DNA of 64,000 nucleotides from Candidatus Sumerlaeaceae bacterium (GCA_049968255.1 JBMFRB010000006.1:190207-254206); one strand, 5' to 3'; shown: positions 22,868 to 59,144, counted from the stretch's first letter. The notes: generated by a model not told the origin, from the sequence alone. Numbers and translations are program-made.

Positions 22868-23440
22868 TTGGCTGAGAATTTCCCGATTGAACGTGTGATC
22901 ATGGAAGCGGACGACCTTGCGCGGGAACTAGCACTGCTGGCCGCCACGCTTCACCGTGACTTTCCGCACGACCCGCAACTTGTGCTGCTGGGCATCAAGA
23001 CGCGCGGCATTTTCCTGGCACAGCGTTTGGCGCAGTTGATGGAAGCGAATCATGGGCAAAAAGTGAAAACGGGCGAGATAGACATCACGCTCTACCGCGA
23101 TGACCTTTCGACCCTTGGGCCGCAACCTGTGGTGGGCAAGACAACGATAGACTTCGACGTGACGGACAAGAAGATCGTGCTCATTGACGACGTGATCTTC
23201 ACGGGGCGCACGATCCGCGCGGGGCTTGACGAGATTGTGGATTTTGGCCGGCCGCGCCTGATTCGTCTGCTTGTGGTGGTGGATCGCGGGTTGCGCGAGT
23301 ATCCAATCCAACCGGACTATGTGGCACGGCGCATCGAGACCGATTACTCGCAGGTGGTGCAGGTGCGTCTGACCGAGGTGGACGGCGAGGATCGCGTGGT
23401 TTTGTGCCGCTTGCCCGGCGCCGTGAGCCCCCAAAGTTAG
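22868..23440 (+). CDS. pyrR: Pyrimidine operon attenuator / uracil phosphoribosyltransferase PyrR
   Basis: GIKTRG, DITLYRDDL, VLIDDVIFTGRTIRA, VDRG.RE.PI.PDYV; TTG start. Confidence 0.92.
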   Translation: MAENFPIERVIMEADDLARELALLAATLHRDFPHDPQLVLLGIKTRGIFLAQRLAQLMEANHGQKVKTGEIDITLYRDDLSTLGPQPVVGKTTIDFDVTDKKIVLIDDVIFTGRTIRAGLDEIVDFGRPRLIRLLVVVDRGLREYPIQPDYVARRIETDYSQVVQVRLTEVDGEDRVVLCRLPGAVSPQS

Positions 23441-23502
23441 TCCGCAGAACAAAAAATAAACTACGTTCGTTCTCGGTACGCTTTGGCGGAACATTTACGG
23501 AT

Positions 23503-23582: not shown

Positions 23583-24728
23583 TCATATCCACTCGATGAT
23601 CACCAATTTGCCCATGGCACGGAGCTTTTCGGCTAACAAGGGAACGATTTGCTGACGCCGCAAGATCCTCATCTGGAAAAAAGGCTGCGATGCCGTGGCG
23701 GGATTTTCGGATTTCCCCACCAAGAAAGTGATGTGGTCCGCCCGAACGAATTCCTCGTAGAGCTGGACCACCACGTTACGCTCTTCGATAGCTCGTGGCG
23801 CGGCGTCGAGCAGGTTATAGAGCTGGTTGAGGCTGACTGCACCTTCTGTGGCGTAGTCCACGCCGTCGAGCAAAAGGCGGGGCGGGCAATACGAGTGAAG
23901 TGATTTAGGGTCAACGATGGCTTCCGTGCCCAGTACGCGCGCGACAATTCCTGCCGTGGTCCCGCCACACACGATTTTGCATCCTTCGGAGGACAAGAAT
24001 TCCCTGACAACTTCCGCGTCCCTTGCTGGATCGCTGGGAGGACCGGTGAGAACAACAACGCGCCTAGCCCGTCGCAGGAGAATGAAGACGGCGGTGGCAT
24101 CGTCTGTTTGATCCGTAGCCGACAGCTCCTGTGCCCGCTTGACGAGAAAATGCGGCAAGCGTCGCAGCGACTCTGTGGCAAGAAAGAATTCCCCTTCGCG
24201 GCGGATGCCCTCGATGCCCCATCCCCAAGGCAATCCGTGACCAACACCAGCTTGAGTGACGCCGTCAGAAAAGAGCAAAAGGCCGTCGTTCTCTCTTAGT
24301 TCGAAACCATACTTGGCTACGAGGGCCCCGCCAAGGGAGACGTGCTCGGCCGGAACAGGATGCAGCCGTCGCCTCGAAAGCATGAGTGGCTCGGGCATCT
24401 CGTAAGCATAGACGGTGGCAGCGCCCGAAGGCATAAAATGGGCCACCGAGAGGGCCGACCACAAGGAGAGTTGGCGGCGATTTTCTTCGAGGGTGCTGAT
24501 AACGTCGCCGAGCGCATGGACGAGCGGGGTGGCGCACTCGATCTTTGCTCGCAAGCGTGTGAGAGCGAAATGGGCCGCCAGATTTGCGCGAATGCCACTC
24601 TTGAGGCCGTCACCCAGCATGACATAGGTGGCTTCGGGCTGGCGCAGCGTCACCACCACGTCCCCACTTGGGCTGTCGGGGATTTTGGGGATCTGGGCAT
24701 GCTCTATTTCAGCGTAAAGGCTTAGCAT
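23583..24728 (-). CDS. SpoIIE/PP2C-type Ser/Thr phosphatase (HfsC-like), hydrogenase-associated
   Basis: SGDVV, LGDGLKSG, FSDGVTQAG, DDATAV PP2C motifs plus the TGPP..D and CGGTT C-terminal domain; overlaps the hydS 3' end. Confidence 0.88.
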   Translation of the reverse strand: MLSLYAEIEHAQIPKIPDSPSGDVVVTLRQPEATYVMLGDGLKSGIRANLAAHFALTRLRAKIECATPLVHALGDVISTLEENRRQLSLWSALSVAHFMPSGAATVYAYEMPEPLMLSRRRLHPVPAEHVSLGGALVAKYGFELRENDGLLLFSDGVTQAGVGHGLPWGWGIEGIRREGEFFLATESLRRLPHFLVKRAQELSATDQTDDATAVFILLRRARRVVVLTGPPSDPARDAEVVREFLSSEGCKIVCGGTTAGIVARVLGTEAIVDPKSLHSYCPPRLLLDGVDYATEGAVSLNQLYNLLDAAPRAIEERNVVVQLYEEFVRADHITFLVGKSENPATASQPFFQMRILRRQQIVPLLAEKLRAMGKLVIIEWI

Positions 24729-26502
24729 GATTGGCGTGCATGGCACTCGGTTGCAGGTCGATTGCGTGTGGTTCGACAAGGGCCGCTTCGAGCAGGTTTT
24801 TGACAAGTTCTTCGCCGTGCGCAGTGTGCTCAGCCAGAAGCCTCGTGATATCCTGCGCCATACGCACCTGGTGTTCGAGCAACTGGCGACTGCGCTCGAG
24901 GGCCTCCCGATGAATCGTGGCCAGGCGCTCGCGATTAAGGTTGCTTTCGGTGACATCCACAAAGATCCCCACGATCTGCTCGTCTTGTTCGAGCGCGTAA
25001 ACGATCTGGTGGAAAATGCGGCCGTAGCGCGGCTCTGGTGCGGTGCGCTCGACTCTTGCGGCCCGGCCAGCAAGTACTTGCTCGAAAGGTGTAGCATCCG
25101 TCAGGTAAGAGATGTGACGCCCTAAGATGACATTTGAGCAAAGAAACATTTTCTCGAAGGCTGGATTCATCGCGATGATGCGCAGCTCATTGTCGAGAAT
25201 GACAATGCCATTGGGGCTTGTCTCCATGATGCGATCCACTCGGCGCTCGGCGAGCAGGCGCATGCGCGGCATGCACATTTCCGGCTCAGCCAGACCGCGG
25301 ACGACGGCGAGGGCTTTTTCGCGGCACGAGCGATAACCGCAAGCGCCGCAATCTAGTTGGTCGCGCGGATCAATTTTACCGATGCGGGCCAGAGCTCGGC
25401 GAATTGCGTCTTCAGTGGGGACGGTGCCATCAACCGCATGCGGCGTGTAGCTAGTAAGTAGCCAAGGCTTCCAGTCCGGCAGCGGCGGCGTGCTTGGAGA
25501 TCTGCTTGGGCCATTGCTCTGGCGTGCATGACTCAGCACGCGCAAGCGGCGCTGAAAAACACTCTCCTCGTCTGTGATGCCGGGGCCACCGATGCAGCCG
25601 CCATTGCAGAAGAGCGGCTCGACAACGGTGAGGCGCTGCGGCATAGGCGCTGCAAGACACTCCTGCAGCGGCTGGACACCCGAGATGCTGAAGACTTCAG
25701 GTGTGAGCAGGTCCGTTGGCAAGTCGGAGGCGTGAAGATGGCCTCCGGCCACAGGGAAAAGGCGGCCGCGCGAGGACCCCTCCTCATCAAATCGGCTTTC
25801 TTCCAACTGGTCGAATCTCAGGCCCTCGCGCTCGAACCACGCACGAAGTTCGCCAAACGTGAGCACACAGTCCACTAACCCTTGGTGCACCGCACGCTGA
25901 GCTTCGAACTTCTTGGCCACACAGGGTCCGATGAAGACCACAGCATCGGCGCCAACTTCGTTGCGTAGGTGCCGCCCGTGGGCGATCATCGGCGACACGA
26001 TGGGTACCAGGACGTCGACCGAGTGGGGAGCATAGAGCTCGACATAGCGAACGACCGTGGGGCAGGCGCTCGTCACGACAAGCGTAGGGCCGTCGTGCTT
26101 TTCCGCAAGCCACTGGGATGTGGCACGAGCCACAGCATCAGCCCCGACCGAAGTTTCGGCCACGTAGGAAAAGCCTAGTTTGCGCAACGCACTAGCGAGC
26201 CGAGGTATTTCGTGCTCGCCAAATGCCGCTGGATAAGTCGGCGCAACGCTCGCTGCGATTTTCTTGCCTGAGGCCAGCAGCTGCGCAGCCCAAGTCGTGT
26301 CGTCGCGGATGACCTTTGCGTTCTGGGGGCACTCTCGGACGCAGGTGCCACAGAAGAGACAACGTTCCTCGACGACCTGGGCTTGCCCGTCCTTCATCCG
26401 GATGGCCTTGACCGGACAGACCCGTACGCAACGGTAACAGTCGCGACACTTGGCGCGATTAGTGGAAATCAGCGGGGTTCTATTTGGGGCAAGGCCATTC
26501 AT
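24709..26502 (-). CDS. hydS: Sensory [FeFe]-hydrogenase (group C, HydS/HfsB-like) with PAS domain
   Basis: Two N-terminal ferredoxin motifs, variant H-cluster motifs TSACP / GPCVAKKFE / EPLFCNGGCIGG, CGACGYRSC Fe-S motif, PAS (ETSPNGIVILD..NPAFEKMF). Confidence 0.88.
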   Translation of the reverse strand: MNGLAPNRTPLISTNRAKCRDCYRCVRVCPVKAIRMKDGQAQVVEERCLFCGTCVRECPQNAKVIRDDTTWAAQLLASGKKIAASVAPTYPAAFGEHEIPRLASALRKLGFSYVAETSVGADAVARATSQWLAEKHDGPTLVVTSACPTVVRYVELYAPHSVDVLVPIVSPMIAHGRHLRNEVGADAVVFIGPCVAKKFEAQRAVHQGLVDCVLTFGELRAWFEREGLRFDQLEESRFDEEGSSRGRLFPVAGGHLHASDLPTDLLTPEVFSISGVQPLQECLAAPMPQRLTVVEPLFCNGGCIGGPGITDEESVFQRRLRVLSHARQSNGPSRSPSTPPLPDWKPWLLTSYTPHAVDGTVPTEDAIRRALARIGKIDPRDQLDCGACGYRSCREKALAVVRGLAEPEMCMPRMRLLAERRVDRIMETSPNGIVILDNELRIIAMNPAFEKMFLCSNVILGRHISYLTDATPFEQVLAGRAARVERTAPEPRYGRIFHQIVYALEQDEQIVGIFVDVTESNLNRERLATIHREALERSRQLLEHQVRMAQDITRLLAEHTAHGEELVKNLLEAALVEPHAIDLQPSAMHANHAKPLR

Positions 26503-26508
26503 TGGCGG

Positions 26509-28545
26509 TCACCTCGCTGCCACTTCGGTGCTTTCTGCCATGGCGAGCTGCCTTTCGATTTCTTCCACAACGCCCTCAACTGTCGCTTCGCTGATGAGGT
26601 TTCTTCCCACGGCGACGTTTGGGCCGTTGCGGCAGTTTTCGAAGCAGAAGGTTCCTTTGACAGCAACTTTGTCCTCCCAGCCGCGGGCTTGGCATGCTTG
26701 CACAAGCTGGTTGATCAGGTTGCGGCTGCCGCGCAGGAAACAGTTCGTACCCACGCAAACGGTCACGTTGAGGCGCGCTGCTTTGGGGCGCACGATGTCC
26801 ACAGGCTCTGCAGCCACGCGTCGGCGGCTCAGGTAGTGCGTATGCAGGAGTTCATGTGCTTTGGGGCTGGCCGGCGCTTCCAGGACAGTGCGATAGCACT
26901 CCATAACTGCGGGGTTTTGTTGGGCAGTATGGATCTCGACGCAACGGTCAATATCGTAGAGGGCTGCTGCGCGCTTGGCGATGGTGTTGCGCCGCGTGGA
27001 GACTGGCTGGCCGGCTCCTCCCACGCAACCCATAGGACATGCCATGACCTCGATGAGATCGTAGGAGGACTCGCCGGCAACGACTTTCTCTGCAATCCGG
27101 CGCGCGTTGGCTAGGCCATGTACCACGGCAATGCTGATTGGCATTCCGCCGATTTCGATCTTTGCTTCGCGTATGCCCTCGGTGCCACGGACTTCCTGGA
27201 ACTCAATTCGTACGAGGTCGGTGGCGTAAGTTTTGGAAACGACATAGCGCAGAACGGCCTCGGCCACGCCACCTGTTGTTCCGAATATAATTCCGGCACC
27301 GGACTTCTGGCCAAACGGCAGATCCATTGGCTCGGGACGTATTGAGGCCAGATCGAGCCCTTGGGCCTCGATCATCGCAATCAGTTCTTGTGTTGTGAGG
27401 ACGTAGTCCACCTCACGCCGGCCGTTACGCGTGAACTCTGGCCGCCGTGCTTCGAATTTCTTGGCTGTGCACGGCATGATGGATACACACACTAGCTGCT
27501 GGGGCTCGACGCCCAGCGCGGTGGGTAATGTGGCCTTGGCAAGCGAACCGAACATCTGCTGTGGAGAGCGGCACGAGCTTAGGTGGCCAAGCAAAGACGG
27601 AAAGTACTGCTCGGCAAACTTCACCCACGCCGGACAGCAGGAGGTAAACATAGGCAGTTTGCCGCCTTGCTCTTTGCGCTGTAAAAACTCCGTGCCTTCC
27701 TCGATCACTGTGAGATCAGCGGCAAAACAAGTATCATAAACTTGGGCGAATCCGAGCCTGCGCAACGCCGCGGCAATCTGGCCCGTGGCCACCGTGCCGC
27801 TGGGCAAACCTAAAGCTTCGCCCGCAGCAACGCGAACAGCTGGGGCAATCTGGGCGATCACTTTTTTGGTGGGATCGGCCAGAACCTGCCACACTTGCTC
27901 GATTTCCTGCCGAGCTACGATCGCCCCAGTGGGGCAGACGGCTGCGCATTGGCCGCAATGGACGCACTCGCTGCTACCGAGCGGCCGCCCCAACGCCGGC
28001 GTGACTACTGTTCGGCTACCACGAAAAGCAAAGTCTAGCGCCCCCACGGACTGGACTTCACGGCACACGCGCACGCAATCGCCGCAGAGAATGCAGCGGT
28101 TCGGATTTCGTTCGAGTGCCGGCGAAGACTTATCCAGCGGCAGGCCGGCGATGGTCGTTTTGAAGCGGACCTCGCGCACTCCCAAACGGCGCGCTAGGGA
28201 TTGAAGTTTGCACGCGGCGTTTTTCGGACAAGTGGGACAATCACGGTCGTGACTGGCCAACAACAGTTCAACAGCCACGCGACGCATCTCTCGAATTTCA
28301 GGTGACGTGGTGCGCACACGCATGCCAGGCTTGGGAACCGTGGTGCACGAGGTGACAATGCCCAGCCCCTCGACCTCGACAAGACAAAGGCGGCATGCGC
28401 CATAGACGCTGAGATGAGAATGATAGCAAAATGTGGGGATATCAATGTCGGCCTTGCGGCATACTTCGAGTAAATTCCGCTCGCGACCAAATGGGATTTC
28501 TCGACCATCTATGATAAGTTTGTTTTGCTGCGCGTATGGGGTCAT
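26509..28545 (-). CDS. hydA: [FeFe]-hydrogenase catalytic subunit (group A3) with C-terminal thioredoxin-like [2Fe-2S] domain
   Basis: IPTFC..GACRLC, HDRDCPTC, CILCGDC, CVHCGQC; H-cluster TSCCPAW, MPCTAKKFE, EVMACPMGCVGG; C-terminal VCVGTNC..FCFENC. Confidence 0.96.
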   Translation of the reverse strand: MTPYAQQNKLIIDGREIPFGRERNLLEVCRKADIDIPTFCYHSHLSVYGACRLCLVEVEGLGIVTSCTTVPKPGMRVRTTSPEIREMRRVAVELLLASHDRDCPTCPKNAACKLQSLARRLGVREVRFKTTIAGLPLDKSSPALERNPNRCILCGDCVRVCREVQSVGALDFAFRGSRTVVTPALGRPLGSSECVHCGQCAAVCPTGAIVARQEIEQVWQVLADPTKKVIAQIAPAVRVAAGEALGLPSGTVATGQIAAALRRLGFAQVYDTCFAADLTVIEEGTEFLQRKEQGGKLPMFTSCCPAWVKFAEQYFPSLLGHLSSCRSPQQMFGSLAKATLPTALGVEPQQLVCVSIMPCTAKKFEARRPEFTRNGRREVDYVLTTQELIAMIEAQGLDLASIRPEPMDLPFGQKSGAGIIFGTTGGVAEAVLRYVVSKTYATDLVRIEFQEVRGTEGIREAKIEIGGMPISIAVVHGLANARRIAEKVVAGESSYDLIEVMACPMGCVGGAGQPVSTRRNTIAKRAAALYDIDRCVEIHTAQQNPAVMECYRTVLEAPASPKAHELLHTHYLSRRRVAAEPVDIVRPKAARLNVTVCVGTNCFLRGSRNLINQLVQACQARGWEDKVAVKGTFCFENCRNGPNVAVGRNLISEATVEGVVEEIERQLAMAESTEVAAR

Positions 28546-28569: not shown

Positions 28570-30504
28570 TTAGGCATAAGTGATGGCATCAAGCTTGCAG
28601 GCGCTGAAACAGGCTCCGCAGCGAATGCAGCGCTCTTGATCGATGACGTGGGGTTTCTTGCGCTCGCCGCTAATGGCCCCCACGGGACACGCTCGGATAC
28701 ATAGGCCACAGCCGCGGCACTTCTCAGCGATGATGGTGGGCACGGCTAGAGCCTTGCATTGACCAGCCGGGCAGCGCTTGCGGTGGATGTGTGCTTCATA
28801 CTCATGGCGGAAATAGCGCAACGTCGAGAGCACGGGATTGGGGGCGGTTTTGCCAAGGCCGCAAAGCGATCCCTTCTGCACCGTGCGGGCGACGACTTCC
28901 AGCAATTCCAACGTTTGCGGCGTGCCGCGTCCCTCGATGATGTCGTCGAGCAGGGCGAGCATTTGCTTTGTTCCCTCGCGGCAGAGGACGCATTTGCCGC
29001 AGCTTTCGTTTTGCGTGAACTGCATGAAGAAGCGCGCCACTTGCACCATGCAGGTCTGAGAGTTCATCACGACAAGCCCGCCGGATCCCACCATGGCGCC
29101 GACACTCTTGAGGCTGTCGAAATCGAGGGGCAGGTCGAGATGCTCGTGAGTCAGGCAGCCGCCGGAGGGTCCGCCAATCTGTACGGCCTTGAAAGCGTCT
29201 TCGCGGATACGCCCCTTGCCGTCGGTCACCCCTCCACCGATGTCGAAAATGATGTGACGCAGCGTGGCGCCGAACGGCACCTCGATGAGGCCGGTGTTGG
29301 GCACATGTCCGGTGAGTGCAAAGGTTTTTGTTCCGGGGCTGGATGGTGTCCCAAGCGCGCGAAATCTCTGCGGCCCCTCGCGGATAATGAGCGGGACGGT
29401 AGCCAACGTCTCCACGTTATTGATCACCGTTGGCTTTCCCCAAAGACCCGACTGAGCAGGGAATGGCGGCTTGGGGCGCGGCATACCTCGCTGCCCCTCA
29501 ATTGAAGCGATGAGAGCGGTCTCCTCGCCGCAGACGAAGGCCCCAGCGCCCTCCATCAGCTCGATATCCACGGCATAGTTGGTCCCAAAAAGGTCATCGC
29601 CCAAGAGCCCCACTTCGTAGGCGTCGTCAATTGCTCGGCGCAGCCGGTGGACAGCCAAGGGATACTCGGCACGAACGTAGAGGTAACCCTTATGGGCGCC
29701 AATCGCTCGGGCTGCAATCAACATTCCCTCGATTACCGCGTGGGGATTGCCTTCCATGACACTGCGATCCATGAAGGCCCCTGGGTCACCTTCGTCGCCG
29801 TTGCAGATGACATACTTGATGTCGCCGGGCTGTTGACGAGCTGCGTCCCATTTCAGGCCGGTCGGGAAACCACCACCTCCTCGGCCGCGCAGACCCGCCT
29901 CTGTGATGATTTGGCAAATCTGAGCAGGAGTGAGTTGGATGAAAGCTTGCTGCGCAGCGCTGTAGCCACCTAGGCCAATATATTCAAGGATGTTTTCGGG
30001 ATCGATCAGACCACATTGGGCTAACACTAAGCGATGTTGCTTTGTGTAAAAATCAATTTGCTCAGTGTTGACCACGCGCTTTTTCGTGCGCGAGTCCACG
30101 AATAGCAGATGATCGACCGTCTCGCCGCCTAGTAGCGTCTTTTGGACAATCTCTGGGACGTCTTCTGGTTTCACGCGGACGTAGAAAACGTTCTGGGGAA
30201 GGATGGAGACGAGCGGCCCCATCTGGCAAAACCCCTGGCAGCCGCTGCGGCTTACCAGGAACTTGGCGGGGATGCGGTCGGTTGGCTCAGACTGTCCCTC
30301 GACAGCCTCAGCTTTGAGCTGGACCTCGACATCCAGGCCCCACTTGGCAATTTCGTGCAGAAGGGCTTCGTAGACCTTCAGGGAACCGCTAGCCACGCAG
30401 CCGGTGCCGGCGCAGACGATCACGCGTTGACGGATGTTGCGGGTGGCCCGGCGATATTCCTCGGCCATGGCTTCCAGGTCCGCAGTGCGTACAACGGTTG
30501 TCAT
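28570..30504 (-). CDS. hydB: Bifurcating hydrogenase diaphorase subunit (NuoF-like)
   Basis: GLRGRGGGGFPTG, NGDEGDPGAFMDR, GAFVCGEETAL, GGPSGG, ESCGKCVLCREG, N-terminal [2Fe-2S] and C-terminal 2x[4Fe-4S]. Confidence 0.94.
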   Translation of the reverse strand: MTTVVRTADLEAMAEEYRRATRNIRQRVIVCAGTGCVASGSLKVYEALLHEIAKWGLDVEVQLKAEAVEGQSEPTDRIPAKFLVSRSGCQGFCQMGPLVSILPQNVFYVRVKPEDVPEIVQKTLLGGETVDHLLFVDSRTKKRVVNTEQIDFYTKQHRLVLAQCGLIDPENILEYIGLGGYSAAQQAFIQLTPAQICQIITEAGLRGRGGGGFPTGLKWDAARQQPGDIKYVICNGDEGDPGAFMDRSVMEGNPHAVIEGMLIAARAIGAHKGYLYVRAEYPLAVHRLRRAIDDAYEVGLLGDDLFGTNYAVDIELMEGAGAFVCGEETALIASIEGQRGMPRPKPPFPAQSGLWGKPTVINNVETLATVPLIIREGPQRFRALGTPSSPGTKTFALTGHVPNTGLIEVPFGATLRHIIFDIGGGVTDGKGRIREDAFKAVQIGGPSGGCLTHEHLDLPLDFDSLKSVGAMVGSGGLVVMNSQTCMVQVARFFMQFTQNESCGKCVLCREGTKQMLALLDDIIEGRGTPQTLELLEVVARTVQKGSLCGLGKTAPNPVLSTLRYFRHEYEAHIHRKRCPAGQCKALAVPTIIAEKCRGCGLCIRACPVGAISGERKKPHVIDQERCIRCGACFSACKLDAITYA

Positions 30505-31019
30505 TGTGCGTCCTCCTCTTGCTGCGCGATTTTGTCCACGAGCTCGACTGCTTGCGAAGGTGTGAGATTGCCATGGACACCATCATCGATCACAACGACG
30601 GGAGCCAGGCCACATGCACCAAGGCAGGAGACGGTCTCGAGCGAGAATTGCATGTCATCGGTCGTGGTGGACGAACCTTCCAGCTTCAGGCGCTCGCGCA
30701 GGGCCTCGAGGATTGCCGTGGAGCCCTTTACGTGGCAAGCCGTACCGTCGCAGACCCTGATCTGGTGCTTGCCTTTGGGCTCGAGCGTGAAGTGCGCGTA
30801 GAAGGTGGCTACACCGTAAACATGGGCGGAGGGGAGGCCGAGAGCTGTCGCCACATATTCGAGAGCTTCAGGGGGAAGGTACCGATAGACCTGTTGAACT
30901 TGTTGAAGAATCGGCACCAGGAGATTTGGGTTTCGCTCGAAGCGATCGAGAATTTCGCAGAGTTGCTGAAAGCGGGCAGCGTTGGATTGACGTTCAACTT
31001 CGCAAGCACATGGCGCCAT
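30501..31019 (-). CDS. hydC: Hydrogenase NuoE-like [2Fe-2S] subunit
   Basis: GVATFYAHF, VCDGTACHVKG, CLGACGLAP; AAGGAGGT SD before ATG 31019; ATGA overlap with hydB. Confidence 0.93.
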   Translation of the reverse strand: MAPCACEVERQSNAARFQQLCEILDRFERNPNLLVPILQQVQQVYRYLPPEALEYVATALGLPSAHVYGVATFYAHFTLEPKGKHQIRVCDGTACHVKGSTAILEALRERLKLEGSSTTTDDMQFSLETVSCLGACGLAPVVVIDDGVHGNLTPSQAVELVDKIAQQEEDAQ

Positions 31020-31027
31020 AGAGGGTA

Positions 31028-31783
31028 CTAGGTGACCTCCTTCTTGGGAATGGTGGGGGCGAGGGACAGCACGCCCAGGGTGAGGGCACGCGTGAGCACG
31101 GCTAAGCTGGCAGAAAAATCCGCCCGCTCGACGAGGACATTTTCCGGCAGTTGCAAAGCGGCGCTGGTGAAATTCCAAATGGCTTTCACGCCGCCGGCAG
31201 CCATCATCTCGGCAACGCTTTGCGCAGCGCTGGCTGGCACAGTGAGGATGCCCAAGGGAATGCTTCGCTGACGCAGGAAGCTGGTGAGGTAGCCGATGGG
31301 CATGATCTCGCGTCCGTGCACCACGAGCCCCACCTTTTCCGGTGCGGCGTCGAAGGCCCCAACGATGTTCAATCCGTAGAGCGAGAAATTATAGCCAAGG
31401 AGAGCCGTCCCCAGGCTGCCAACGCCAACAAGCACGGCCTCGGTCGTCCGACGCCACCCAAGGAAGTCTTCGATGGCAGCGATAAGCTCGGCAATAGGGT
31501 ACCCCACCTTGGGGCGCCCCGAGATCTGCGTCAGCGCCAAGTCTTTGCGGACCTGTGTGGGATCGAAACGTAGATCTGCGGCAAGTTGCGTGCATGAGAC
31601 GACAGTTCGGCCCCGGGCCTGGTAATCCCGGAGAAGTCGGAGATAAAGCGGGAGGCGCCTGACGGAGGGCGTGGGGACCGTCTTTGGTTTTGCGTTGGTT
31701 ATTTGTTTGCTCAGTGTGCCGGCACCCATCTCCTGGGTTTCCCTCGCCTCGCTGTCGAGAATTTTTTCTCGTTTCGTTGTCAT
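31028..31783 (-). CDS. rex: Redox-sensing transcriptional repressor, Rex family (divergent paralog)
   Basis: PSVRRLPLYLR, QVRKDL, VGY, VGVGSLG Rossmann fold, GVKAIWNF; GGAGGA SD. Confidence 0.9.
   Translation of the reverse strand: MTTKREKILDSEARETQEMGAGTLSKQITNAKPKTVPTPSVRRLPLYLRLLRDYQARGRTVVSCTQLAADLRFDPTQVRKDLALTQISGRPKVGYPIAELIAAIEDFLGWRRTTEAVLVGVGSLGTALLGYNFSLYGLNIVGAFDAAPEKVGLVVHGREIMPIGYLTSFLRQRSIPLGILTVPASAAQSVAEMMAAGGVKAIWNFTSAALQLPENVLVERADFSASLAVLTRALTLGVLSLAPTIPKKEVT
31755..31772. promoter_or_regulatory. Palindromic operator candidate TCGAGAA-TTTT-TTCTCGT (variant Rex-type 7-4-7)
   Basis: Directly visible; within the first codons of rex. Confidence 0.6.
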
Positions 31784-31796
31784 GATAGTCCTCCAA

Positions 31797-31814
31797 TAGA
31801 GAAATTATTCTCTA
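31797..31814. promoter_or_regulatory. Palindromic operator candidate TAGAGAA-ATTA-TTCTCTA (variant Rex-type 7-4-7)
   Basis: Perfect 7-bp inverted repeat immediately upstream of the rex SD in an AT-rich promoter region. Confidence 0.7.
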
Positions 31815-31901
31815 AATTGTGTAGTTTGTTGCTTTGATTAAAATTGCGCCTTCGCTTTTTGGATCTTTACCCGGATCAGCGAAAGCTAAAGACCCCATAA
31901 T

Positions 31902-31919
31902 TGGAGAATTGCTTCTCTA
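31902..31919. promoter_or_regulatory. Palindromic operator candidate TGGAGAA-TTGC-TTCTCTA
   Basis: Third GAGAA-N4-TTCTC copy, at the far end of the rex promoter region, overlapping the corrinoid-gene stop codon. Confidence 0.6.
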
Positions 31920-32576
31920 ATTGAGGCCGGCTAAAAATTCGATAGCTGCTTGCGGATCGTGTCCGTAATGAGCGCCAATGCTCCGCGCGAAAGACTCACT
32001 GACCGGAGCTCCACCGACGATCACTGGGATGTCGAGCTCGCAACGGCGCAAGGACTCTATGACGACGGGCATCTGCTGCATGGTCGTGGTCAACAAGGCG
32101 GAGAGCCCTAGGGCCAGGGGCCGATGCTGGCGAACGGCCTCGACGAACTGTTCGGCTGGGACGCTCGTTCCGAGATCCACCACCTCCCACCCAGCGCCCT
32201 CGACCATGATTTTCACTAGATTTTTGCCGATATCGTGGACGTCGCCTTGCACAGTCCCAAGAACAAAAATCCCGCGACGTGGGACAGCGGCGCTTGCAAG
32301 GTGGGGCTTGAGAAGCTCGACGCCAGCTTTCATCGCTTTCGAGGCCATGAACACCTCGGGGAGAAAAATTTCTCCCGTGCAGAAGCGGCGCCCAACAATC
32401 TCCATCCCTGCCATAAGCCCATGGACGAGGATGCGCTGGGCTTCAATCCCTCCGGAGATTGCCTGCGTCACTTTTTCCGCCACACCCGCTTGTCCAGCCA
32501 GCGTAGGCGGATATTTCGATTGTGCATTGGCGTGTCCCATCGCCACGAGGTCTGCTATCTCTTTCAGGAGTTCCAT
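31917..32576 (-). CDS. Stand-alone corrinoid (B12-binding) protein, MtaC/MetH cap+B12 domain
   Basis: GEIFLPEV cap motif, GTVQGDVHDIGKNLV (DxHxxG), LSALLTTT, IVGGAP. Confidence 0.9.
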   Translation of the reverse strand: MELLKEIADLVAMGHANAQSKYPPTLAGQAGVAEKVTQAISGGIEAQRILVHGLMAGMEIVGRRFCTGEIFLPEVFMASKAMKAGVELLKPHLASAAVPRRGIFVLGTVQGDVHDIGKNLVKIMVEGAGWEVVDLGTSVPAEQFVEAVRQHRPLALGLSALLTTTMQQMPVVIESLRRCELDIPVIVGGAPVSESFARSIGAHYGHDPQAAIEFLAGLN

Positions 32577-33321
32577 CACGATTCTCCCTTAGTTTTTGGT
32601 TTTGACTGCGCTCGTTCTCGTGTCTGCTGAGAGGAAACAGCGAGAAAACCCCTGGCCGTCGCACGCGCGGAGCGCTCGTCCACCTTGCAATGACGTAAGC
32701 CTAAATCGGGTCAGCGCAGCGCACGTACGACGGTGCACCTGTCATTTTGCGAGCTCCTCGTCTAATGTGAGGATTTATTTCTCTTCCCGAGCGTCGGATG
32801 TCAAGACAAGGCGCCATAGCGCAAAGAGATGAGGGCGCTCAGTACCTCCAATGGCGGAGATTCGGACGAGTGGTGGTGCGACGACGCTCTTTTCTCCGTG
32901 CGTCGCGGTGGGGACGACGAAGAGATGTTTCGCGAAACAAGCCAGGGATGTGCTCGTCAGGAGCACATCGAAGCGTGGCAGAGAGAAAGAGAGTGAGGCT
33001 CCAAAGAGAGTCCGCCGAGTAGTGAACATTTGGCCAGAAGAGTGGCCCTCTGGCTCGTTAAGCTGGGCAGCAACACGCTTTTTCTGCCGACGATTGCTCG
33101 GAAAGACCTTGCTGGGCTGTGGGGCCATCCGGAGCAACGAGCGTCCCGCCTACGAAAGACTCGTGCCTTCGTTTGGGGCCGAAGTGGTGTTGGCTTTGCG
33201 GCGGTGTGATCATTTCTTCATAGTTCTGGCTCGATGACTACGCTTTGCTGCCAAGCATAGCAGCTCCGCCGTGAACGTGGCGTGTTGACATATGCAGTCC
33301 TCAGTGGCGAGGATCGCGACC

Positions 33322-36303
33322 ATGCAATCGCAAGAGATACGTCCCATCCGCAGAACTCGCTTGCCGGTGGGGATTGCGCTGGATGCTCTTACACTGACCA
33401 CCACTGTTCTGCTCATTCTCGCGTTTTATGTGCCGCGTTTTTCTCCCCATGCGAGCTTCGTGCTCGGTGATAGTCTCGATCAAAACGTGCCGCACCGGGT
33501 TTACGCCACGCAGCGTATCCAGCAGTGGCAGTTGCCCGAATGGTCAGATATGACCTTTGGCGGCTATCCTTTTCTCAGTGATCCGCAAACGGCAGTCTTT
33601 TTTCCGCCCTTTGCGGTGATGGAGCTCCTGGGGTGGATTCCGGACACATCACGCCGCTTCGATGCTGTGGCCTTGGGATTCGTACTCGCCGCGGGGCTGG
33701 GCGCCACAGCGCTCGCGCGTGGGTTGGGAGGGGGGCGGCTGGGAGCAATCGGCGCCGGTGTGTTCTTTGCACTCAATGGCTACATGGTGAATCATCTTTC
33801 CCACACGGTGATCACGAGCGCCATTGCTGCGGGTGTGTGGGGAATGTTTTTTTTGGCGCTAGCCTGTGCCCACGGCATGCCGCGTGCTTGGTGGGCTGCT
33901 GCCCTCTGCCTGGCCTCCTCGGTGCTGACAGGCCACTGGCAGACCTCCATGTTTGCGTGGTATGCCGCCACTGCTCTGGGCCTCTACCTCGTCCTTCGTG
34001 AAACTTTTCGCGGTCGTTCGCTCATGACGGGGTGGCGAAATTTCGTGGGACTGGCTTTCGTCTTTGTTGTGGCCGGGTTAGGCACTCTTGTGCAAGTGCT
34101 GCCGACTCTTGAGTTCTTGAAACATTCGACGCGCGAGAAGCTCGGCTTGAGCGATGCGCTGGCTTACTCGCTACCGCTTAAGCAGCTCGCTGGCCTTCTT
34201 GCGCCTGCATTTTATCAACCGCTGGTCTGGCGTGTTCCAGCTGAAAACCGTTGGGAGCTCTGCTGGAGCACGTGGGGCATGGACGGAGCGTGGGAGTTTC
34301 ATTTTTGGATCGGCATTGTGGCTGTGGCGTTGATGCTTTTCGGCTTGTTTGCTTACGCAAAACGCCTTTCGTCGTGGTTGTTGGCCGCAGCCCTTCTCTT
34401 TACTATCGTGGCCGCGATGGGCGAAGATTTTGCGCTTTATCGCTGGCTCTATTTTCACGTGCCAGGATTTCGTCAAATCCGTATTCCACCGCGGATGTTG
34501 TGGGTGGGATACCTGGCTGGAGCAGTTCTTCTCGGCCGAGGGGTAGACGCCGCCACGAGGATGCCGCGTTGGCCGTGGCGAAAATGGGCGCGAGCTGGCG
34601 CCATGCTTATGCTCCTTTGGCTTCTGGCTGCGATCGCCACTCTGCTCGCGTGGGCACTTTTTGTCACGGATAGCTGGGAATCGGCAGTCGAGATGTTGCT
34701 GGTGATTAATCCGAATTTCCGGGTTGGTGTACACCGGAGTGTGGAAGACTTCCTTGGGGACATCAGGGCGGCGGCATTCGTAGCAAGTTGTTTTTTCGTG
34801 GCGTCACTCGGCTGGCTGTGGTTGGCGGGTCGACGACGATCGCCTTCGCGAGCGCTTGGACTCGTTGCTGTTGTCTTGATGGCGGCGGAACTGACGGTCT
34901 ACGGAATCTACAAAAATATCCGCACCGATAGCGCGGGATTTTTTTCGGCCGTCACGCCCATGCATGCACTCATAGGCGAGCGCGTGGACGGTCGTCTCCA
35001 CTCGTTTGCGGTCGGCCCTTGGGAGAAAAACACCGGTGAAGCATCGGGAATTCCCCTGACGACTGGCTACAACCCAATGATACTTCGGTGGACCCATGCT
35101 TGCTTTCCCCCCGAAGAACCAACGCACGGTTGGAAATCGCGCGAGAGACTGCTGGATGTCTATAATGTCACGCACGTGGCGGCTCCTAGTGGCACTTGCA
35201 CTGTGGAGTTGCCGGGACTCTCTCGCCGCGCTGAGCTCACCACGGGTACGGGAAGCGTTTACCTTGCGCAGACAAGCGAGCAATTGAGCTCCACCTTAGA
35301 GATCTCAACGAAAGGTAAGGATCTCGCTGGCGTAGCCGTTGTCAGCGGCGCCATGGGAGTGTCTGGAGAAGCAGACGGCACGACTGTGGGCGTTGTGAGC
35401 TTGCTGGGTGAGCATGGCGACGAAATCACAAGTTTCGCGTTGCGCCTGGGGCACGAGACGGCCGAGTGGACGTATTTCGACCCAGGACTAGAGCTGAGTC
35501 CGGCTCACGTCGCACCGCCGCTCGCCTTCAAAGAGGGTCGCGATTTGTGCACATCGTCGACGGCTTATTTCTTGGCACGTTTCGACGTAAACACGACGAA
35601 GCCTGTGCGCACCGTGCGCATTCAAGCAAACCTCACTGCGCCACGGTGGCTCTCCGTGGCTCATGTGATCGAGATCACGAGCGAGGCACAGGCACACGTT
35701 CACCCCGCCGTGGAAGGTCTGGGCTATGTCGCGGTGCCATCGCGCGATCCCCGGCGCTGGATTTATTACCGGCGCCCGAGTGCTCTGGGCTGGGCATGGC
35801 TTGCGCCGGAGGCACAGCCAGTAAGCTACAAATCGAGTCTGCGGTGGGTGCGGCAGCGATTGGACGACCCTGCCTGGAATCCGAGGCGCACCGTGTGGGT
35901 GGACAAAAAGGCTTTTGCCACGACGGAATCGCTCGCTGCGCATAACGCGCAACGGCCCGCGGATTTTGTGGGACACTGCGAAGTCGAGCATCCTTATCCG
36001 GAGTTCTGGCGAATCCGCACACGCGGCAACGATCGAGCTTGGCTCTGCATTTCGAACACATGGTATCATGGGTGGCGCGCATCGGTCGACGGACGCAAGA
36101 CGCCGGTCGTGCGTGCCAATGGCCCGTTTATAGCTGTGCCAGTACCGGCGGGCGAGCACGTTGTCGAGCTTCGCTACTCGACGCCCTGGTTATGGCTAGG
36201 AGCGACCGTGAGCGCCCTAACCTGGACTGTGGCTCTGCTCGGGCTTATTGTCGGCTGGCAGCCCTGGGCCCGATTGATCCCAAAACAGGCAGCTCCAAAG
36301 TGA
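33322..36303 (+). CDS. YfhO-like large membrane protein (putative GT-C glycosyltransferase)
   Basis: GD..DQ..P and PEWSDMTFGGYPFLSDPQ after the first TM, GHWQ, RIPPR, C-terminal WYHGWRASVDG..AN..F.AVPVPAGEHVVELRY plus TM. Confidence 0.8.
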   Translation: MQSQEIRPIRRTRLPVGIALDALTLTTTVLLILAFYVPRFSPHASFVLGDSLDQNVPHRVYATQRIQQWQLPEWSDMTFGGYPFLSDPQTAVFFPPFAVMELLGWIPDTSRRFDAVALGFVLAAGLGATALARGLGGGRLGAIGAGVFFALNGYMVNHLSHTVITSAIAAGVWGMFFLALACAHGMPRAWWAAALCLASSVLTGHWQTSMFAWYAATALGLYLVLRETFRGRSLMTGWRNFVGLAFVFVVAGLGTLVQVLPTLEFLKHSTREKLGLSDALAYSLPLKQLAGLLAPAFYQPLVWRVPAENRWELCWSTWGMDGAWEFHFWIGIVAVALMLFGLFAYAKRLSSWLLAAALLFTIVAAMGEDFALYRWLYFHVPGFRQIRIPPRMLWVGYLAGAVLLGRGVDAATRMPRWPWRKWARAGAMLMLLWLLAAIATLLAWALFVTDSWESAVEMLLVINPNFRVGVHRSVEDFLGDIRAAAFVASCFFVASLGWLWLAGRRRSPSRALGLVAVVLMAAELTVYGIYKNIRTDSAGFFSAVTPMHALIGERVDGRLHSFAVGPWEKNTGEASGIPLTTGYNPMILRWTHACFPPEEPTHGWKSRERLLDVYNVTHVAAPSGTCTVELPGLSRRAELTTGTGSVYLAQTSEQLSSTLEISTKGKDLAGVAVVSGAMGVSGEADGTTVGVVSLLGEHGDEITSFALRLGHETAEWTYFDPGLELSPAHVAPPLAFKEGRDLCTSSTAYFLARFDVNTTKPVRTVRIQANLTAPRWLSVAHVIEITSEAQAHVHPAVEGLGYVAVPSRDPRRWIYYRRPSALGWAWLAPEAQPVSYKSSLRWVRQRLDDPAWNPRRTVWVDKKAFATTESLAAHNAQRPADFVGHCEVEHPYPEFWRIRTRGNDRAWLCISNTWYHGWRASVDGRKTPVVRANGPFIAVPVPAGEHVVELRYSTPWLWLGATVSALTWTVALLGLIVGWQPWARLIPKQAAPK

Positions 36304-52005: not shown

Positions 52006-52023
52006 TTGTGAAAAGTATCACAA
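52006..52023. promoter_or_regulatory. Canonical Rex operator 1 (TTGTGAA-AAGT-ATCACAA)
   Basis: One mismatch to the established Rex consensus TTGTGAA-N4-TTCACAA. Confidence 0.75.
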
Positions 52024-52027
52024 ATGG

Positions 52028-52045
52028 TCGTGAAAGTTTTCACAA
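52028..52045. promoter_or_regulatory. Canonical Rex operator 2 (TCGTGAA-AGTT-TTCACAA)
   Basis: One mismatch to the Rex consensus; centre is 22 bp from operator 1 and it ends 13 bp before the rrf2 ATG. Confidence 0.75.
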
Positions 52046-52058
52046 ATAGCACGAGACC

Positions 52059-52607
52059 ATGCTCGCATTGAACCAAACAACGGCTTACGCCATTCTGACG
52101 CTTGGGCTGCTCGAGGATCCCAACGGCAAGCCATTGCACGTGGAGGAAATCGCGCGGGCGACTGGCATTCCGCGGGCCTATCTGGCAAAGCTGGTGTATC
52201 GCCTCAGGCGCAAGGGCTTTGTGACGACGCGGCGCGGTTTTCGCGGAGGGGTAACATTGGCCCGTCCGGCCAATGCTATCGCTCTGCTGGAGGTGGCGGA
52301 AGCGGTGACGGGCCGGCCTTTTAGCGCGCCGTGCCTGCTAGGGCTGCGAATTTGCGGCGACAGTGCAACGTGCCCTCTTAACCGCTTTTGGACCAAGACG
52401 GTGGAGATGGTCCGTCAGGGCTTGCTGCACGCCACAGTTGCGGACGCGGGGAATCTGCGGTGCGTGGCCTCGGCTCGACGTTTGCGCGACCAGCGAGTTG
52501 CCCGGCTGGACGTGGCCATCAAGCCATCGCTTGGCGGTGAGCAAAATGCGCAGTGGCATGATTCAGGCGGGCCAACGACTTTTCCCAAGGAAGGGAGGGC
52601 CAAATAG
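52059..52607 (+). CDS. Rrf2-family transcriptional regulator (putative Fe-S binding)
   Basis: YA..L, IA...GIP..YL.K, RG.RGG..LAR wHTH; C-x6-C-x5-C motif (CLLGLRICGDSATC). Confidence 0.9.
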   Translation: MLALNQTTAYAILTLGLLEDPNGKPLHVEEIARATGIPRAYLAKLVYRLRRKGFVTTRRGFRGGVTLARPANAIALLEVAEAVTGRPFSAPCLLGLRICGDSATCPLNRFWTKTVEMVRQGLLHATVADAGNLRCVASARRLRDQRVARLDVAIKPSLGGEQNAQWHDSGGPTTFPKEGRAK

Positions 52608-52612
52608 CCATC

Positions 52613-53212
52613 ATGGATGTCACCACGAGGCATATCAAATATCAGGCCGATTGCGACCAGAGTTTCCCTGCAGCGATCAAGAAGATTCCGGGCTGTGAGA
52701 AGCTCGACAGTTGCATCCAGTGCGGCACGTGTTCGGGCGTGTGTCCGCTAAGTATCTACATGGACATGACCCCGCGGCGTGTGATGAACTTGGTGCGCTA
52801 TGGCTTCAAAAAAGAGGTCATGGCATCGAACACGATTTGGCTGTGCTCTTCGTGTTATGCATGCACGGTGGAATGTCCGCGCGAGATAAAAGTGACGGAC
52901 ATCATGTACGCACTGAAGCAGATGGCCATTCGGGAGCGCGCCTACCCACGCCGCTTTGCGATGGTTGTGCTGGCGAATGAATTTTACAAGATGGTGCGGG
53001 CGCGTGGCCGCGTGAACGAAATCCACTTGGTGACGCGGCTGAATCTGCTGACCAATCCGCTTAAGATGTTGGGCATGGCACGGTTGGGAATCGAGCTGAT
53101 CCGACGCGGACGATTCTCGCTGCGGCCTGAGAGCGTGCGCGATCCACAACGCATCCGCGAGATCATGGAGTATCCCGAAAACGGAAACGCAAAGGAGGTG
53201 CGAGCGCAATGA
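52613..53212 (+). CDS. hdrC: Heterodisulfide reductase subunit C
   Basis: CIQCGTCSGVCP and IWLCSSCYACTVECP. Confidence 0.9.
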   Translation: MDVTTRHIKYQADCDQSFPAAIKKIPGCEKLDSCIQCGTCSGVCPLSIYMDMTPRRVMNLVRYGFKKEVMASNTIWLCSSCYACTVECPREIKVTDIMYALKQMAIRERAYPRRFAMVVLANEFYKMVRARGRVNEIHLVTRLNLLTNPLKMLGMARLGIELIRRGRFSLRPESVRDPQRIREIMEYPENGNAKEVRAQ

Positions 53213-54099
53213 GATACCATTACTTCCCTGGATGCTCGGTGCTGGGCACGGGACGAGCGTGTGAGGAAAGCACTCAAGCGGTCATCCGCGAACTTGGCGT
53301 GCAACTAAAGGAAATCGACGATTGGAACTGCTGTGGGGCCACAGCCTACATGTCCGTGGACGAACACAATGCGCTAGCGCTCGCGGCTCGCAACATTGCC
53401 CTGGCGGAACAAGAGGGCGCCACGCAAATGACGACACCTTGCAGTGGTTGTTATCTTGTTCTTAATAAAACAAAGCACTATATTGAGGAATATCCTCAAG
53501 TCGGCAATCGGGTGAAGGGATCGCTGCGCAAGGCGGGACTGAACTACAAGGGCAACGTGCGCGTGCGTCACATGCTCGACATCTTTGTCAACGACGTGGG
53601 CCTTGATGAGATCAAGAAGCACGTAAAGGTCCCATTGAAGGGTGTGAAAGTTGCGGCCTACTATGGCTGTCAGACGGTGCGTCCTTTCAAGGATTTTGAC
53701 CAGCAACACTTTCCCACAAAGATTGATGAGTTATGTGAAGCGCTCGGCGCCAGCTCTGTGCACTTCCCGCTGAAGACGCGCTGCTGCGGGGGCAGTCAGA
53801 TGGGTACGCTTCCGGCGGTGGCCCAGCGGCTAGTCTTTGCGATTCTTCGCGAAGCCAAGCGACAAGGGGCGAATTTGATCGTGAGCGTCTGCCCCCTGTG
53901 CCACTTCAATCTGGACTCCTATCAGGTGGAGATTGTGCGCCGCTTCGGCGAGGACGTCTCGATTCCGTGCATGTACTACACGCAGCTCATGGGGCTAGCT
54001 TTTGGGATAGATCCCATAACATTAGGCCTGCAGCGCAATCTGACGTGGGACCAGTGTGAGCTACGCAATCGGTTCGCGCCTGCTGCGGTGGGAGCATAA
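53209..54099 (+). CDS. hdrB: Heterodisulfide reductase subunit B
   Basis: YFPGC, WNCCG, PCSGC, YYGC, RCCG and CPLC CCG-domain motifs. Confidence 0.92.
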   Translation: MRYHYFPGCSVLGTGRACEESTQAVIRELGVQLKEIDDWNCCGATAYMSVDEHNALALAARNIALAEQEGATQMTTPCSGCYLVLNKTKHYIEEYPQVGNRVKGSLRKAGLNYKGNVRVRHMLDIFVNDVGLDEIKKHVKVPLKGVKVAAYYGCQTVRPFKDFDQQHFPTKIDELCEALGASSVHFPLKTRCCGGSQMGTLPAVAQRLVFAILREAKRQGANLIVSVCPLCHFNLDSYQVEIVRRFGEDVSIPCMYYTQLMGLAFGIDPITLGLQRNLTWDQCELRNRFAPAAVGA

Positions 54100-54112
54100 G
54101 GAGGTGAGTACG

Positions 54113-56104: not shown

Positions 56105-56609
56105 GACATACGAGCCCAAAATCGTGGCGTTTTTCTGCAACTGGTGCACCTACGCAGCGGCGGACCTGGCAGGTGTGTCGCGGATGAAATACGCGCCGAA
56201 TCTGCGCACGATTCGCCTGATGTGCAGCGGCCGTGTGGATCCACAGTTCGTGCTCGAGGCGTTTGCTCGCGGGGCGGATGGCGTGCTTATCGGGGGATGT
56301 CACCCCGGCGACTGCCATTACATTAGCGGAAACTATAAATGCCTGCGGCGCTTCAAGCTGCTCAAACGCGTGGTGGAGCAGATGGGCATCGAACCGGAGC
56401 GGCTGCGCCTCGAATGGATCTCGGCCTCTGAGGGCGACAAGCTTCGGCAAGTGGTGAACGAGTTCGTGGCAAAGCTGCGTGAGCTTTCGCCGCTAAATTT
56501 ACCGCAGCGGTTCGTTGAGTGGGACAAGGAGGTTTCCGAGCTCAAGGACAAGGTTGTCGCTGCGCAGCAGGAGCAAGCATCGCACGAGGAGGTGACCAGC
56601 CATGCCTGA
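56097..56609 (+). CDS. mvhD: Methyl-viologen-reducing hydrogenase delta subunit
   Basis: FFCNWCTYAAAD, MCSGRVD, GCHPGDCHY, WISASEG. Confidence 0.93.
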   Translation: MSETYEPKIVAFFCNWCTYAAADLAGVSRMKYAPNLRTIRLMCSGRVDPQFVLEAFARGADGVLIGGCHPGDCHYISGNYKCLRRFKLLKRVVEQMGIEPERLRLEWISASEGDKLRQVVNEFVAKLRELSPLNLPQRFVEWDKEVSELKDKVVAAQQEQASHEEVTSHA

Positions 56610-57573: not shown

Positions 57574-57594
57574 ACGTTCGAGGAGTGATGAGCC

Positions 57595-59118: not shown

Positions 59119-59144
59119 GCGTGCAAGGAGATGGGTGCGTAGGG

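Follow-up and report, generated by a model that had tools for sequence, protein, structure and literature searches.

A Rex subgroup with a predicted shifted operator on HydABC/HydS operons of Candidatus Sumerlaeaceae and relatives

Rex, and the pairing of its gene with the genes for HydABC/HydS hydrogenases or with adhE, are already known (PMC10084766, PMC5707799, PMC10055695). The consensus operator of S. aureus Rex is TTGTGAA-N4-TTCACAA (PMC2883068), and the Clostridiaceae Rex has the variant operator TTGTTAA-N4-TTAACAA (PMC8457756). In the Rex-DNA complex from S. agalactiae, G5 and G7 bond with the pair Arg50/Arg51, respectively, while Ala47 reaches T6 and C16 through water molecules; farther out, the minor groove at the operator's end is read by Arg62 of the wing (PMC8376106). 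For T. aquaticus Rex, the NAD(H)-binding residues have been described, along with the redox switch residues Arg16, Tyr98, and Asp188 (PMC6125430). Regulation of the R. albus hydrogenase by Rex and HydS has been proposed (PMC10084766), and HydS is reported to share an operon with another hydrogenase gene (PMC10055695). Members of Sumerlaeota possess group A3 [FeFe] and group 3c [NiFe] hydrogenases, and the available portions of the paper describing them contain no mention of Rex (PMC8092238).

The window (the whole stretch of 64,000 nucleotides from Candidatus Sumerlaeaceae bacterium that was analyzed) carries on its minus strand the genes for a corrinoid protein, rex, hydC, hydB, hydA, a HydS-type hydrogenase, and a SpoIIE phosphatase, in this order (Table 1). 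Judging by domain content, hydC, hydB, hydA, the PAS-bearing hydrogenase, and the Ser/Thr phosphatase form a single run of the HydABC/HydS type. Against the model NF040763, HydA scored 730.8 bits, under the cutoff of 765; the protein (26509-28545) has an additional C-terminal thioredoxin-like [2Fe-2S] domain at residues 588 to 663. The minus-strand open reading frame at 22928-23494 was rejected as an operon member, as it had no Pfam match and a phosphoribosyltransferase is encoded on the opposite strand. The corrinoid protein gene (31917-32579) lies on the same strand as rex and may be cotranscribed with it. No methyltransferase partner adjoins this gene, and, among the best 80 of 518 loci of relatives, a corrinoid protein gene upstream of rex was also found in the closest locus (L001) and in none of the other 79. 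Thermotoga maritima has a second rex paralog, TM1427 (“Rex2”), in a hydABC/hydS gene cluster, beside a bifurcating hydrogenase and a sensory HydS; a literature search for this Thermotoga Rex paralog (TM1427, Rex2), or for a Rex associated with a sensory HydS, found no paper.

Table 1. Positions of genes and candidate regulatory sites in the window
Feature	Position	Strand	Remarks
SpoIIE-family Ser/Thr phosphatase gene	23583..24725	-	PF07228; final gene of the run
Phosphoribosyltransferase gene	22868-23440	+	PF00156; convergent, after the SpoIIE gene
hydS-type sensory [FeFe] hydrogenase gene	24709..26502	-	PF02906, PF04060, PF13188; H-cluster domain + FeS + PAS
hydA, group A [FeFe] hydrogenase large subunit	26509..28545	-	TIGR02512, above cutoff
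hydB, NuoF-like FMN/NADH subunit	28570..30504	-	PF01512, PF10589
hydC, NuoE-like 2Fe-2S subunit	30501..31019	-	PF01257; start ATG 31019 from a reading of the junction sequence
rex	31028..31783	-	251 aa; PF06971 + PF02629
O3, candidate operator	31754..31773	.	GTCGAGAA-TTTT-TTCTCGTT; 17.0 bits, second best in the window
Shine-Dalgarno GGAGG of rex	31790..31794	-	6 nt before ATG 31783; GGAGG and ATG conserved in L001
O2, candidate operator	31796..31815	.	ATAGAGAA-ATTA-TTCTCTAA; 21.9 bits, strongest site
O1, candidate operator	31901..31920	.	TTGGAGAA-TTGC-TTCTCTAA; 12.0 bits
Stand-alone corrinoid (B12-binding) protein gene	31917..32579	-	PF02310, PF02607; directly upstream of rex
Two canonical-type boxes, at 52006 and 52028	52006..52045	.	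22 bp apart; separate from the new operator set

The rex product combines the N-terminal winged-helix and the C-terminal Rossmann domains typical of Rex, and its best NCBIfam model is NF003994, with a score of 258 bits against a cutoff of 130. In the AlphaFold model, the mean pLDDT is 89.4, with values of 50 to 59 for the first 30 residues, a low-confidence N-terminal extension of ∼30 aa. All top 18 matches in a structure search with this model were Rex proteins, the best one being 1xcb (Z score of 22.0 and root mean square deviation of 1.9 over 189 residues). The window protein is similar to canonical Rex (1xcb, 3ikt, 3ket, and 7wb3) in its fold (Z scores of 18 to 22), the GxGxxG loop, the Arg16/Tyr98/Asp188 set, and the R-[KR]-D helix, but shares only 30 to 37% identity with these proteins and belongs to a type with Thr, Val, or Ile at the position of Ala47. 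The loop is intact (G120-x-G122-x-x-G125), Asp145 is the acidic residue after the second strand, and Arg49, Tyr131, and Asp222 align with the T. aquaticus residues Arg16, Tyr98, and Asp188. The equivalent of Asp188 is Asp in only 47 of the 87 matched homologs, which counts against the main reading given below. The window protein, a Rex that retains the NAD(H) switch residues, is predicted to bind an inverted repeat as a dimer and to be released by NADH.

The altered wing SGRPKVGY claimed in the preliminary description was found in the open reading frame 31028-31783 on the minus strand, where the recognition helix reads DPTQVRKD and the wing reads GRPKVGY. This change is not private to the window gene: Pro91 and Lys/Arg92 are each present in 119 of the 120 best homologs, the Arg79/Lys80 pair is invariant in all 120, and a P-[KR] wing is found in 102 of the 150 representatives from a profile search. 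All 10 canonical controls have Gly at position 92, and the window Rex departs from the canonical wing G-x-x-G-x-G-Y. The subgroup is characterized by Thr, Val, or Ile in the helix where canonical Rex mostly has Ala or Ser and by the wing x-P-[KR]-x-G-Y; compared to the canonical [KRQ]-G, P-[KR] puts Pro where Arg62 of S. agalactiae Rex reads the minor groove. In a midpoint-rooted tree of 97 rows, the 10 canonical-wing controls split from the 87 other rows with support values of 100/99. With this midpoint root and only 10 canonical controls, the P-[KR] rows enclose three from Bacteroidales, which takes 2 changes, with 1 change in 16% of bootstrap trees. The window Rex appears to fall in a P-[KR]-wing subgroup apart from canonical Rex, with the Bacteroidales rows nested within it, and its closest named relatives come from Ca. 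Sumerlaeaceae (for example, L001).

The Bacteroidales proteins (L081, L082, and L084) resemble the subgroup in their best model, NF003994, and their side of the tree, but have the wing G-[RK]-T-R-V-G-Y, Ala in place of the base-reading Arg79, and Asp in place of the redox switch residue Tyr131. No upstream box of either type was found in any of these 3 loci, and their neighbors are housekeeping genes; these proteins may bind DNA differently or not at all. Several other unusual arrangements were observed. Four proteins of 394 to 443 aa (P0121, P0147, P0159, and P0176) are head-to-tail double Rex proteins, with two Rex units per chain; P0121 has two Pro-containing wings, and P0147, P0159, and P0176 have wings of the canonical type. 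These chains could be single-chain pseudo-dimers reading asymmetric operators. Two loci from Verrucomicrobiota (L026, 8993-10657, and L073, 8602-10639) each encode two divergent rex genes of the same subgroup, one with the Thr-type and the other with the Val-type helix.

Exact GAGAA-N4-TTCTC cores are found four times in the 64-kb window, at 31757, 31799, 31904, and 32361. When the window was shuffled 100 times with its dinucleotides preserved, such cores numbered 0.01 on average and never more than 1; among 200,000 composition shuffles of the segment 31720-31930, one copy of the core appeared in 31 and two or more in none. The three palindromes originally noticed near the rex start have been confirmed in their positions and quoted flanks, while the fourth exact core, at 32361, had been overlooked. 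This additional core (32361-32374) was rejected as an operator: it lies in the corrinoid protein gene, reads G-E-I-F-L-P in frame, scores -3.4 bits with the family matrix described below, and is probably a chance product of coding sequence. A search of L001 for the matching codons found none. The other three cores belong to the candidate operators O1 to O3, at the head of the rex-hydC-hydB-hydA-hydS-SpoIIE phosphatase run, each with 4 or 5 mismatches to the canonical TTGTGAA-N4-TTCACAA.

When the window was ranked with a matrix derived from other genomes, O2 came first in the entire 64 kb, O3 second, and O1 fourth. The third-ranked match, a hybrid TTCGTGAA-ACTT-TTCGCGGT (33995-34014, 12.3 bits) inside a YfhO-like gene, is probably due to chance. 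O2 ends 1 base ahead of the GGAGG ribosome-binding site of rex, and L001 has a site at the same position. O3 occupies bases +11 to +30 of rex (codons K-R-E-K-I-L-D) and is probably truly intragenic, because the GGAGG and the ATG of rex are conserved in L001. The counterpart of O3 in the DNA of L001 is degenerate. The 8 closest relatives (P0002 to P0009) have an R-E/K/D-x-x-L-D/E peptide at their otherwise variable N termini; O3 encodes this peptide in the rex frame, and its conservation is indirect evidence for O3. O1 overlaps the stop codon of the upstream corrinoid protein gene, and L001 carries a 23.5-bit site where O1 stands in the window. O3 and O1 are separated from O2 by 42 and 105 bp, respectively, i.e., 4 and 10 helical turns, a spacing that would allow contacts on the same face of the DNA.

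Conservation of the palindromes was assessed in the best 80 of 518 confirmed relatives (from 599 pattern matches) in GTDB, a sample that leans towards the window protein; the motif was built without the window itself. Upstream of these best 80 of 518, no palindrome of the 5-N4-5 type was more frequent than GAGAA (24 copies in 22 loci), which was outside the top three in a coding control. Unseeded palindromic expectation maximization on 400 bp upstream of the same best 80 of 518 loci yielded ATCGAGAA-N4-TTCTCGAT, a result shared by the six top-scoring runs from up to 60 random starts. The resulting family operator of 20 bp can be written as ATCGA(G/T)AA-N4-TT(C/A)TCGAT, with frequencies at motif position 6 of 0.59 for G and 0.39 for T. 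Like the canonical operator, it is an inverted repeat around an AT-rich spacer of 4 bp, retains the two guanines that Rex contacts, and lies over promoters, but it has TCGAGAA for TTGTGAA and a conserved outer A. The earlier view of a 7-4-7 Rex site with GTGAA changed to GAGAA was right about the shift of the operator but not about its extent: with its 8-4-8 layout (ATCGAGAA), the family motif exceeds 7-4-7, and it departs from TTGTGAA at two positions instead of one.

In five-fold cross-validation, sites of at least 14 bits within 400 bp were detected in 60 of the best 80 of 518 loci, compared to 0.19% of 1,600 dinucleotide-shuffled sequences, to which the full matrix was applied. Within 600 bp, the full matrix found sites in 62 of these best 80 of 518, in all 20 named phyla of the set (phylum labels of metagenome-assembled genomes were taken as given, and a few, e.g., L037 and L060, look doubtful on the tree). 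Elsewhere in the 1.19 Mb of flanking DNA, only 11 sites reached 15 bits, and 8 of these still belonged to a rex operon, either heading it or lying divergent to it (L015, L039, L050, and L062). The controls were 14 of the 19 rex matches from a plasmid collection; with the subgroup matrix, none of these 14 loci had an upstream score above 6.4 bits, whereas canonical boxes with one mismatch preceded rex in two loci from actinobacteria. The motif is conserved upstream of the relatives, as the cross-validated 60 of the best 80 of 518 loci indicate.

Promoter positions point in the same direction. Among the best 80 of 518 loci, 44 have a clear TTGA-type promoter, chosen regardless of the sites, and in 34 of these 44 a site starts 18 to 34 bp after the -35 start (random mean of 5.2 and maximum of 13 in 2,000 draws); a second cluster of sites lies 15 to 27 bp before the -35 start. 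By its placement over promoters in the relatives, this is the geometry of a repressor. In the window, a scan revealed no clear sigma70 promoter, the best candidates matching at 7 or 8 of 12 positions. The one with the best fit to the family geometry, TTTTAA-16-CACAAT starting at 31843, is weak (7 of 12) and was not accepted. The ends of the motif resemble ATCGAT and are self-palindromic, so neighboring sites may share them and overlap in steps of 14 bp; the canonical sequence does not permit such arrays. When only unshared bases were counted, a partner site was found at 14 bp in 23 and at 28 bp in 8 of the 62 loci with sites (from the best 80 of 518), against 0 to 2 loci for any other offset from 15 to 44. 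The 14-bp overlap is not a mere by-product of the self-palindromic ends, as 23 of 62 loci keep it when only the 14 unshared bases are scored. These arrays in relatives suggest two or three dimers binding cooperatively; the window has no 14-bp staggered overlap.

The same data bear on the idea that the palindromes are RNA hairpins acting as a terminator, an attenuator, or in translation control, rather than protein sites. O3 was flagged as terminator-like on the plus strand, and O2 abuts the ribosome-binding site. However, the sequence itself is conserved, beyond pairing; the many sites upstream of the -35 start would escape transcription; the overlapping 14-bp arrays cannot all pair together; and the region has 3 predicted terminators, a count near the shuffle mean of 0.8 (standard deviation, 1.2). 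We consider hairpins a highly improbable explanation. Autoregulation of the window rex via a new predicted operator is well supported because of the footprinting, and this part of the preliminary description has held up: the site is conserved upstream (60 of the best 80 of 518 loci), overlaps the promoter (34 of 44), and follows rex when the downstream genes change.

With respect to the target genes, hydABC is linked to rex in 49 of the best 80 of 518 loci, with hydC directly after rex in 48 and divergent in one. HydS-like proteins are encoded in 33 and SpoIIE phosphatases in 20 of these 80 (best of 518), counts that are limited by contig ends. Within 600 bp, sites are present in 47 of the 49 hydABC-linked loci (L015 and L065 stay below 14 bits) versus 15 of the 31 others among the best 80 of 518. 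The 16 of 31 without a site belong mostly to a Planctomycetota branch, 9 of them being Planctomycetota without hydABC nearby. A scan of 127 open reading frames neighboring rex in the non-hydABC loci revealed methylmalonyl-CoA carboxytransferase operons at L014, L054, L061, L066, and L071 and, in divergent orientation, at L039. In L050 and in L015, which is also hydABC-linked, adhE is directly upstream of rex and the sites precede adhE; L021 encodes HydS-type hydrogenases without hydABC, and L009 has a divergent nuoA-like gene. Accordingly, the initial label “hydrogenase-dedicated” fits the 49 hydABC-linked loci of the best 80 of 518 but is too narrow for the 15 of 31 others that have a site, including carboxytransferase loci, and for the adhE-rex heads. 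Since the sites also stand on carboxytransferase, adhE, and other operons, the regulon would seem to comprise redox-balancing fermentation operons, mostly but not only those for hydrogenases.

This distribution could also be explained by another transcription factor of hydrogenase and fermentation operons that binds the palindromes and has rex as only one of its targets. Such a factor would agree with the absence of an upstream site from 16 of the 31 rex loci without hydABC (best 80 of 518) and with L062, where the sites are at the hydC end of a divergent region, ∼570 bp from rex; besides, the hydABC promoters sampled are those with a nearby rex. Against it, the site stays with rex over carboxytransferase, adhE, and other genes in 15 of the 31 (best 80 of 518), the contacts known for Rex agree with the spacing and with both guanines, and operator position 6 tracks Rex residue 76 (mostly G in 37 and T in 4 loci for Thr; T in 16 and G in 0 for Val/Ile). 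Altogether, we regard control by such a factor as quite improbable and Rex itself as the protein that would bind the sites.

As for the residues that could read the changed bases, sequence alignment with S. agalactiae Rex equates Arg50 with Arg79, Arg51 with Lys80, Ala47 with Thr76, and Arg62 with Pro91, and both contacted guanines are kept in GAGAA. The T-to-A change (GTG to GAG) falls at the Ala47/Thr76 position, so that, by analogy, the recognition helix rather than the wing would read it; for the outer ATC, the wing change is the likelier explanation. The position 6 counts come from unshared half-sites only, with positions 5 and 6 masked in site calling, and include 8 ties among Thr76 loci and 3 among Val/Ile loci (from the best 80 of 518). 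A claim of proven coevolution of Thr/Val/Ile with G/T was not upheld, as supported branches offer only 1 (quick tree) or 2 (careful tree) independent pairs, with p values of 0.5 to 1. After correction for kinship, the rule linking residue 76 to position 6 may be taken as a lead, not a result.

Retention of the canonical base readers Arg79 and Lys80 is compatible with a single global Rex that binds the new and the canonical boxes about equally and also controls the hdr-mvh genes, GAGAA being a local preference. The two boxes at 52006 and 52028, which precede an rrf2-hdrC-hdrB-hdrA-mvhD-mvhG-mvhA-maturation protease operon (window positions 52006-59681, by Pfam domains), each match TTGTGAA-N4-TTCACAA at 13 of 14 bases and are weakly positive with the subgroup matrix (4.0 and 4.6 bits, respectively). 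Sites of the CRP type follow the consensus TGTGA-N6-TCACA. The same boxes match it at 10 of 10 and 9 of 10 positions, and sequence alone cannot separate CRP/Fnr from Rex here; the initial designation as canonical Rex boxes is thus borne out by the match itself but shared with a CRP/Fnr motif. A single Rex would also agree with the GTGAA half-sites in the subgroup's own operators (11 of 260) and with the gene content, given that Pfam searches found no second rex in the window and, among the best 80 of 518 loci, only the same-subgroup copies in L026 and L073. The global Rex elsewhere in the genome and the orthogonality to it, as put forward in the preliminary description, are conjectures, the analysis of this genome having covered the window. 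On the other hand, exact GT[GT]AA-N4-TT[AC]AC was found within 400 bp upstream in none of the best 80 of 518 loci, and a canonical-type box with at most 2 mismatches was found within 600 bp in only 4 of these 80 (best of 518); with equal binding, autoregulatory sites from as many as 20 phyla would be expected to have reverted to the canonical sequence in more cases. We therefore find one Rex with equal affinity for both boxes unlikely and prefer a Rex with its own operator. In L040, a canonical-type TTGTGAT-ATTT-TTCACAA lies ∼254 bp upstream of the rex match, in one region with three subgroup sites, which hints at dual control. A canonical box after rex in L026 was discounted, as it is in the hydC reading frame (F-V-K-V-F-T) and is probably coding.

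Among described Rex proteins, the Clostridiaceae variant resembles the subgroup in having a shifted operator, whose G/T variation affects the position that also varies in GAGAA/GATAA, but keeps the outer TTGT and the canonical wing; the clostridial controls have Gln at the Lys80 position and group with canonical Rex in the tree. C. thermocellum Rex_1799 (Clo1313_1799/Cthe_0422), compared by eye and outside the tree, shares the wing and helix type (SRPKLGY and DVQVRKD; PMC8457756). In that study, this protein was one of 131 factors in the screen and one of nine chosen for a second test, and it produced no DAP-seq peaks in two rounds of a screen that succeeded for only ∼11% of the factors (PMC8457756). 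The plasmid-encoded Rex of R. albus 7 (RUMAL_RS17350, L083) has the GRPKVGY wing, the GVQVRKD helix, and NF003994 as its best model. Its gene order, rex-adhE-...-hydS-type-SpoIIE, is similar to the HydS-type/SpoIIE neighborhood of the window, and the region upstream of rex-adhE (7820-7850) contains an ATCGAT pair 15 bp apart, 1 bp over the family period, that scores 5.4 bits and fails the matrix. The missing peaks of Rex_1799 and the longer R. albus repeat both count against the main reading.

Seen directly were the palindromic sites and how well they are conserved, where they stand relative to promoters in the relatives, the Rex fold, and the residues for NADH sensing. With binding, repression, and release taken by analogy from characterized Rex proteins, we consider it quite probable that the window protein represses its own operon through the new operator and is released by NADH. 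A Rex dimer would bind ATCGA(G/T)AA-N4-TT(C/A)TCGAT over the promoter and the start of translation of this operon and, at a low NADH/NAD+ ratio, repress rex-hydCBA-hydS-phosphatase. Upon a build-up of NADH, the dimer would close and let go of the DNA, and the bifurcating-type HydABC made after derepression could dispose of NADH and reduced ferredoxin as H2; the direction of this flux is inferred from characterized HydABC enzymes.

A literature search for the subgroup operator found no report, though it may have been described elsewhere; nothing on a second Rex motif was found in the available portions of PMC5886521, PMC8579813, PMC3750489, and PMC3878776. A broader proposal is possible but tentative: the subgroup may represent a widespread second Rex lineage, orthogonal to the canonical one, that runs its own NADH circuit on electron-sink operons (HydABC/HydS, AdhE, and propionate carboxytransferase), with a 20-bp operator whose self-palindromic ends would let two or three dimers stack at 14-bp intervals and repress in a cooperative, switch-like manner, a helix residue (Thr versus Val/Ile) that sets G or T at position 6, and an operator for orphans such as Rex_1799. 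If orthogonal, the Rex-operator pair would provide a second NADH-responsive repressor-operator part for reporters. Rex operators have been treated as nearly invariant, and scans for canonical boxes would miss the regulon of this subgroup, whose operator predicts what to seek ahead of rex-adhE in clostridia that make ethanol. HydABC/HydS operons have a central role in the formation of H2 by fermentation, and, in the available portions of the papers concerned, their regulation by Rex/HydS has been proposed without naming a site (PMC10084766, PMC5707799, PMC10055695). The operator, together with the predicted promoter geometry and the residue-to-base rule, would make this proposal a concrete, testable switch for hydrogenase control.
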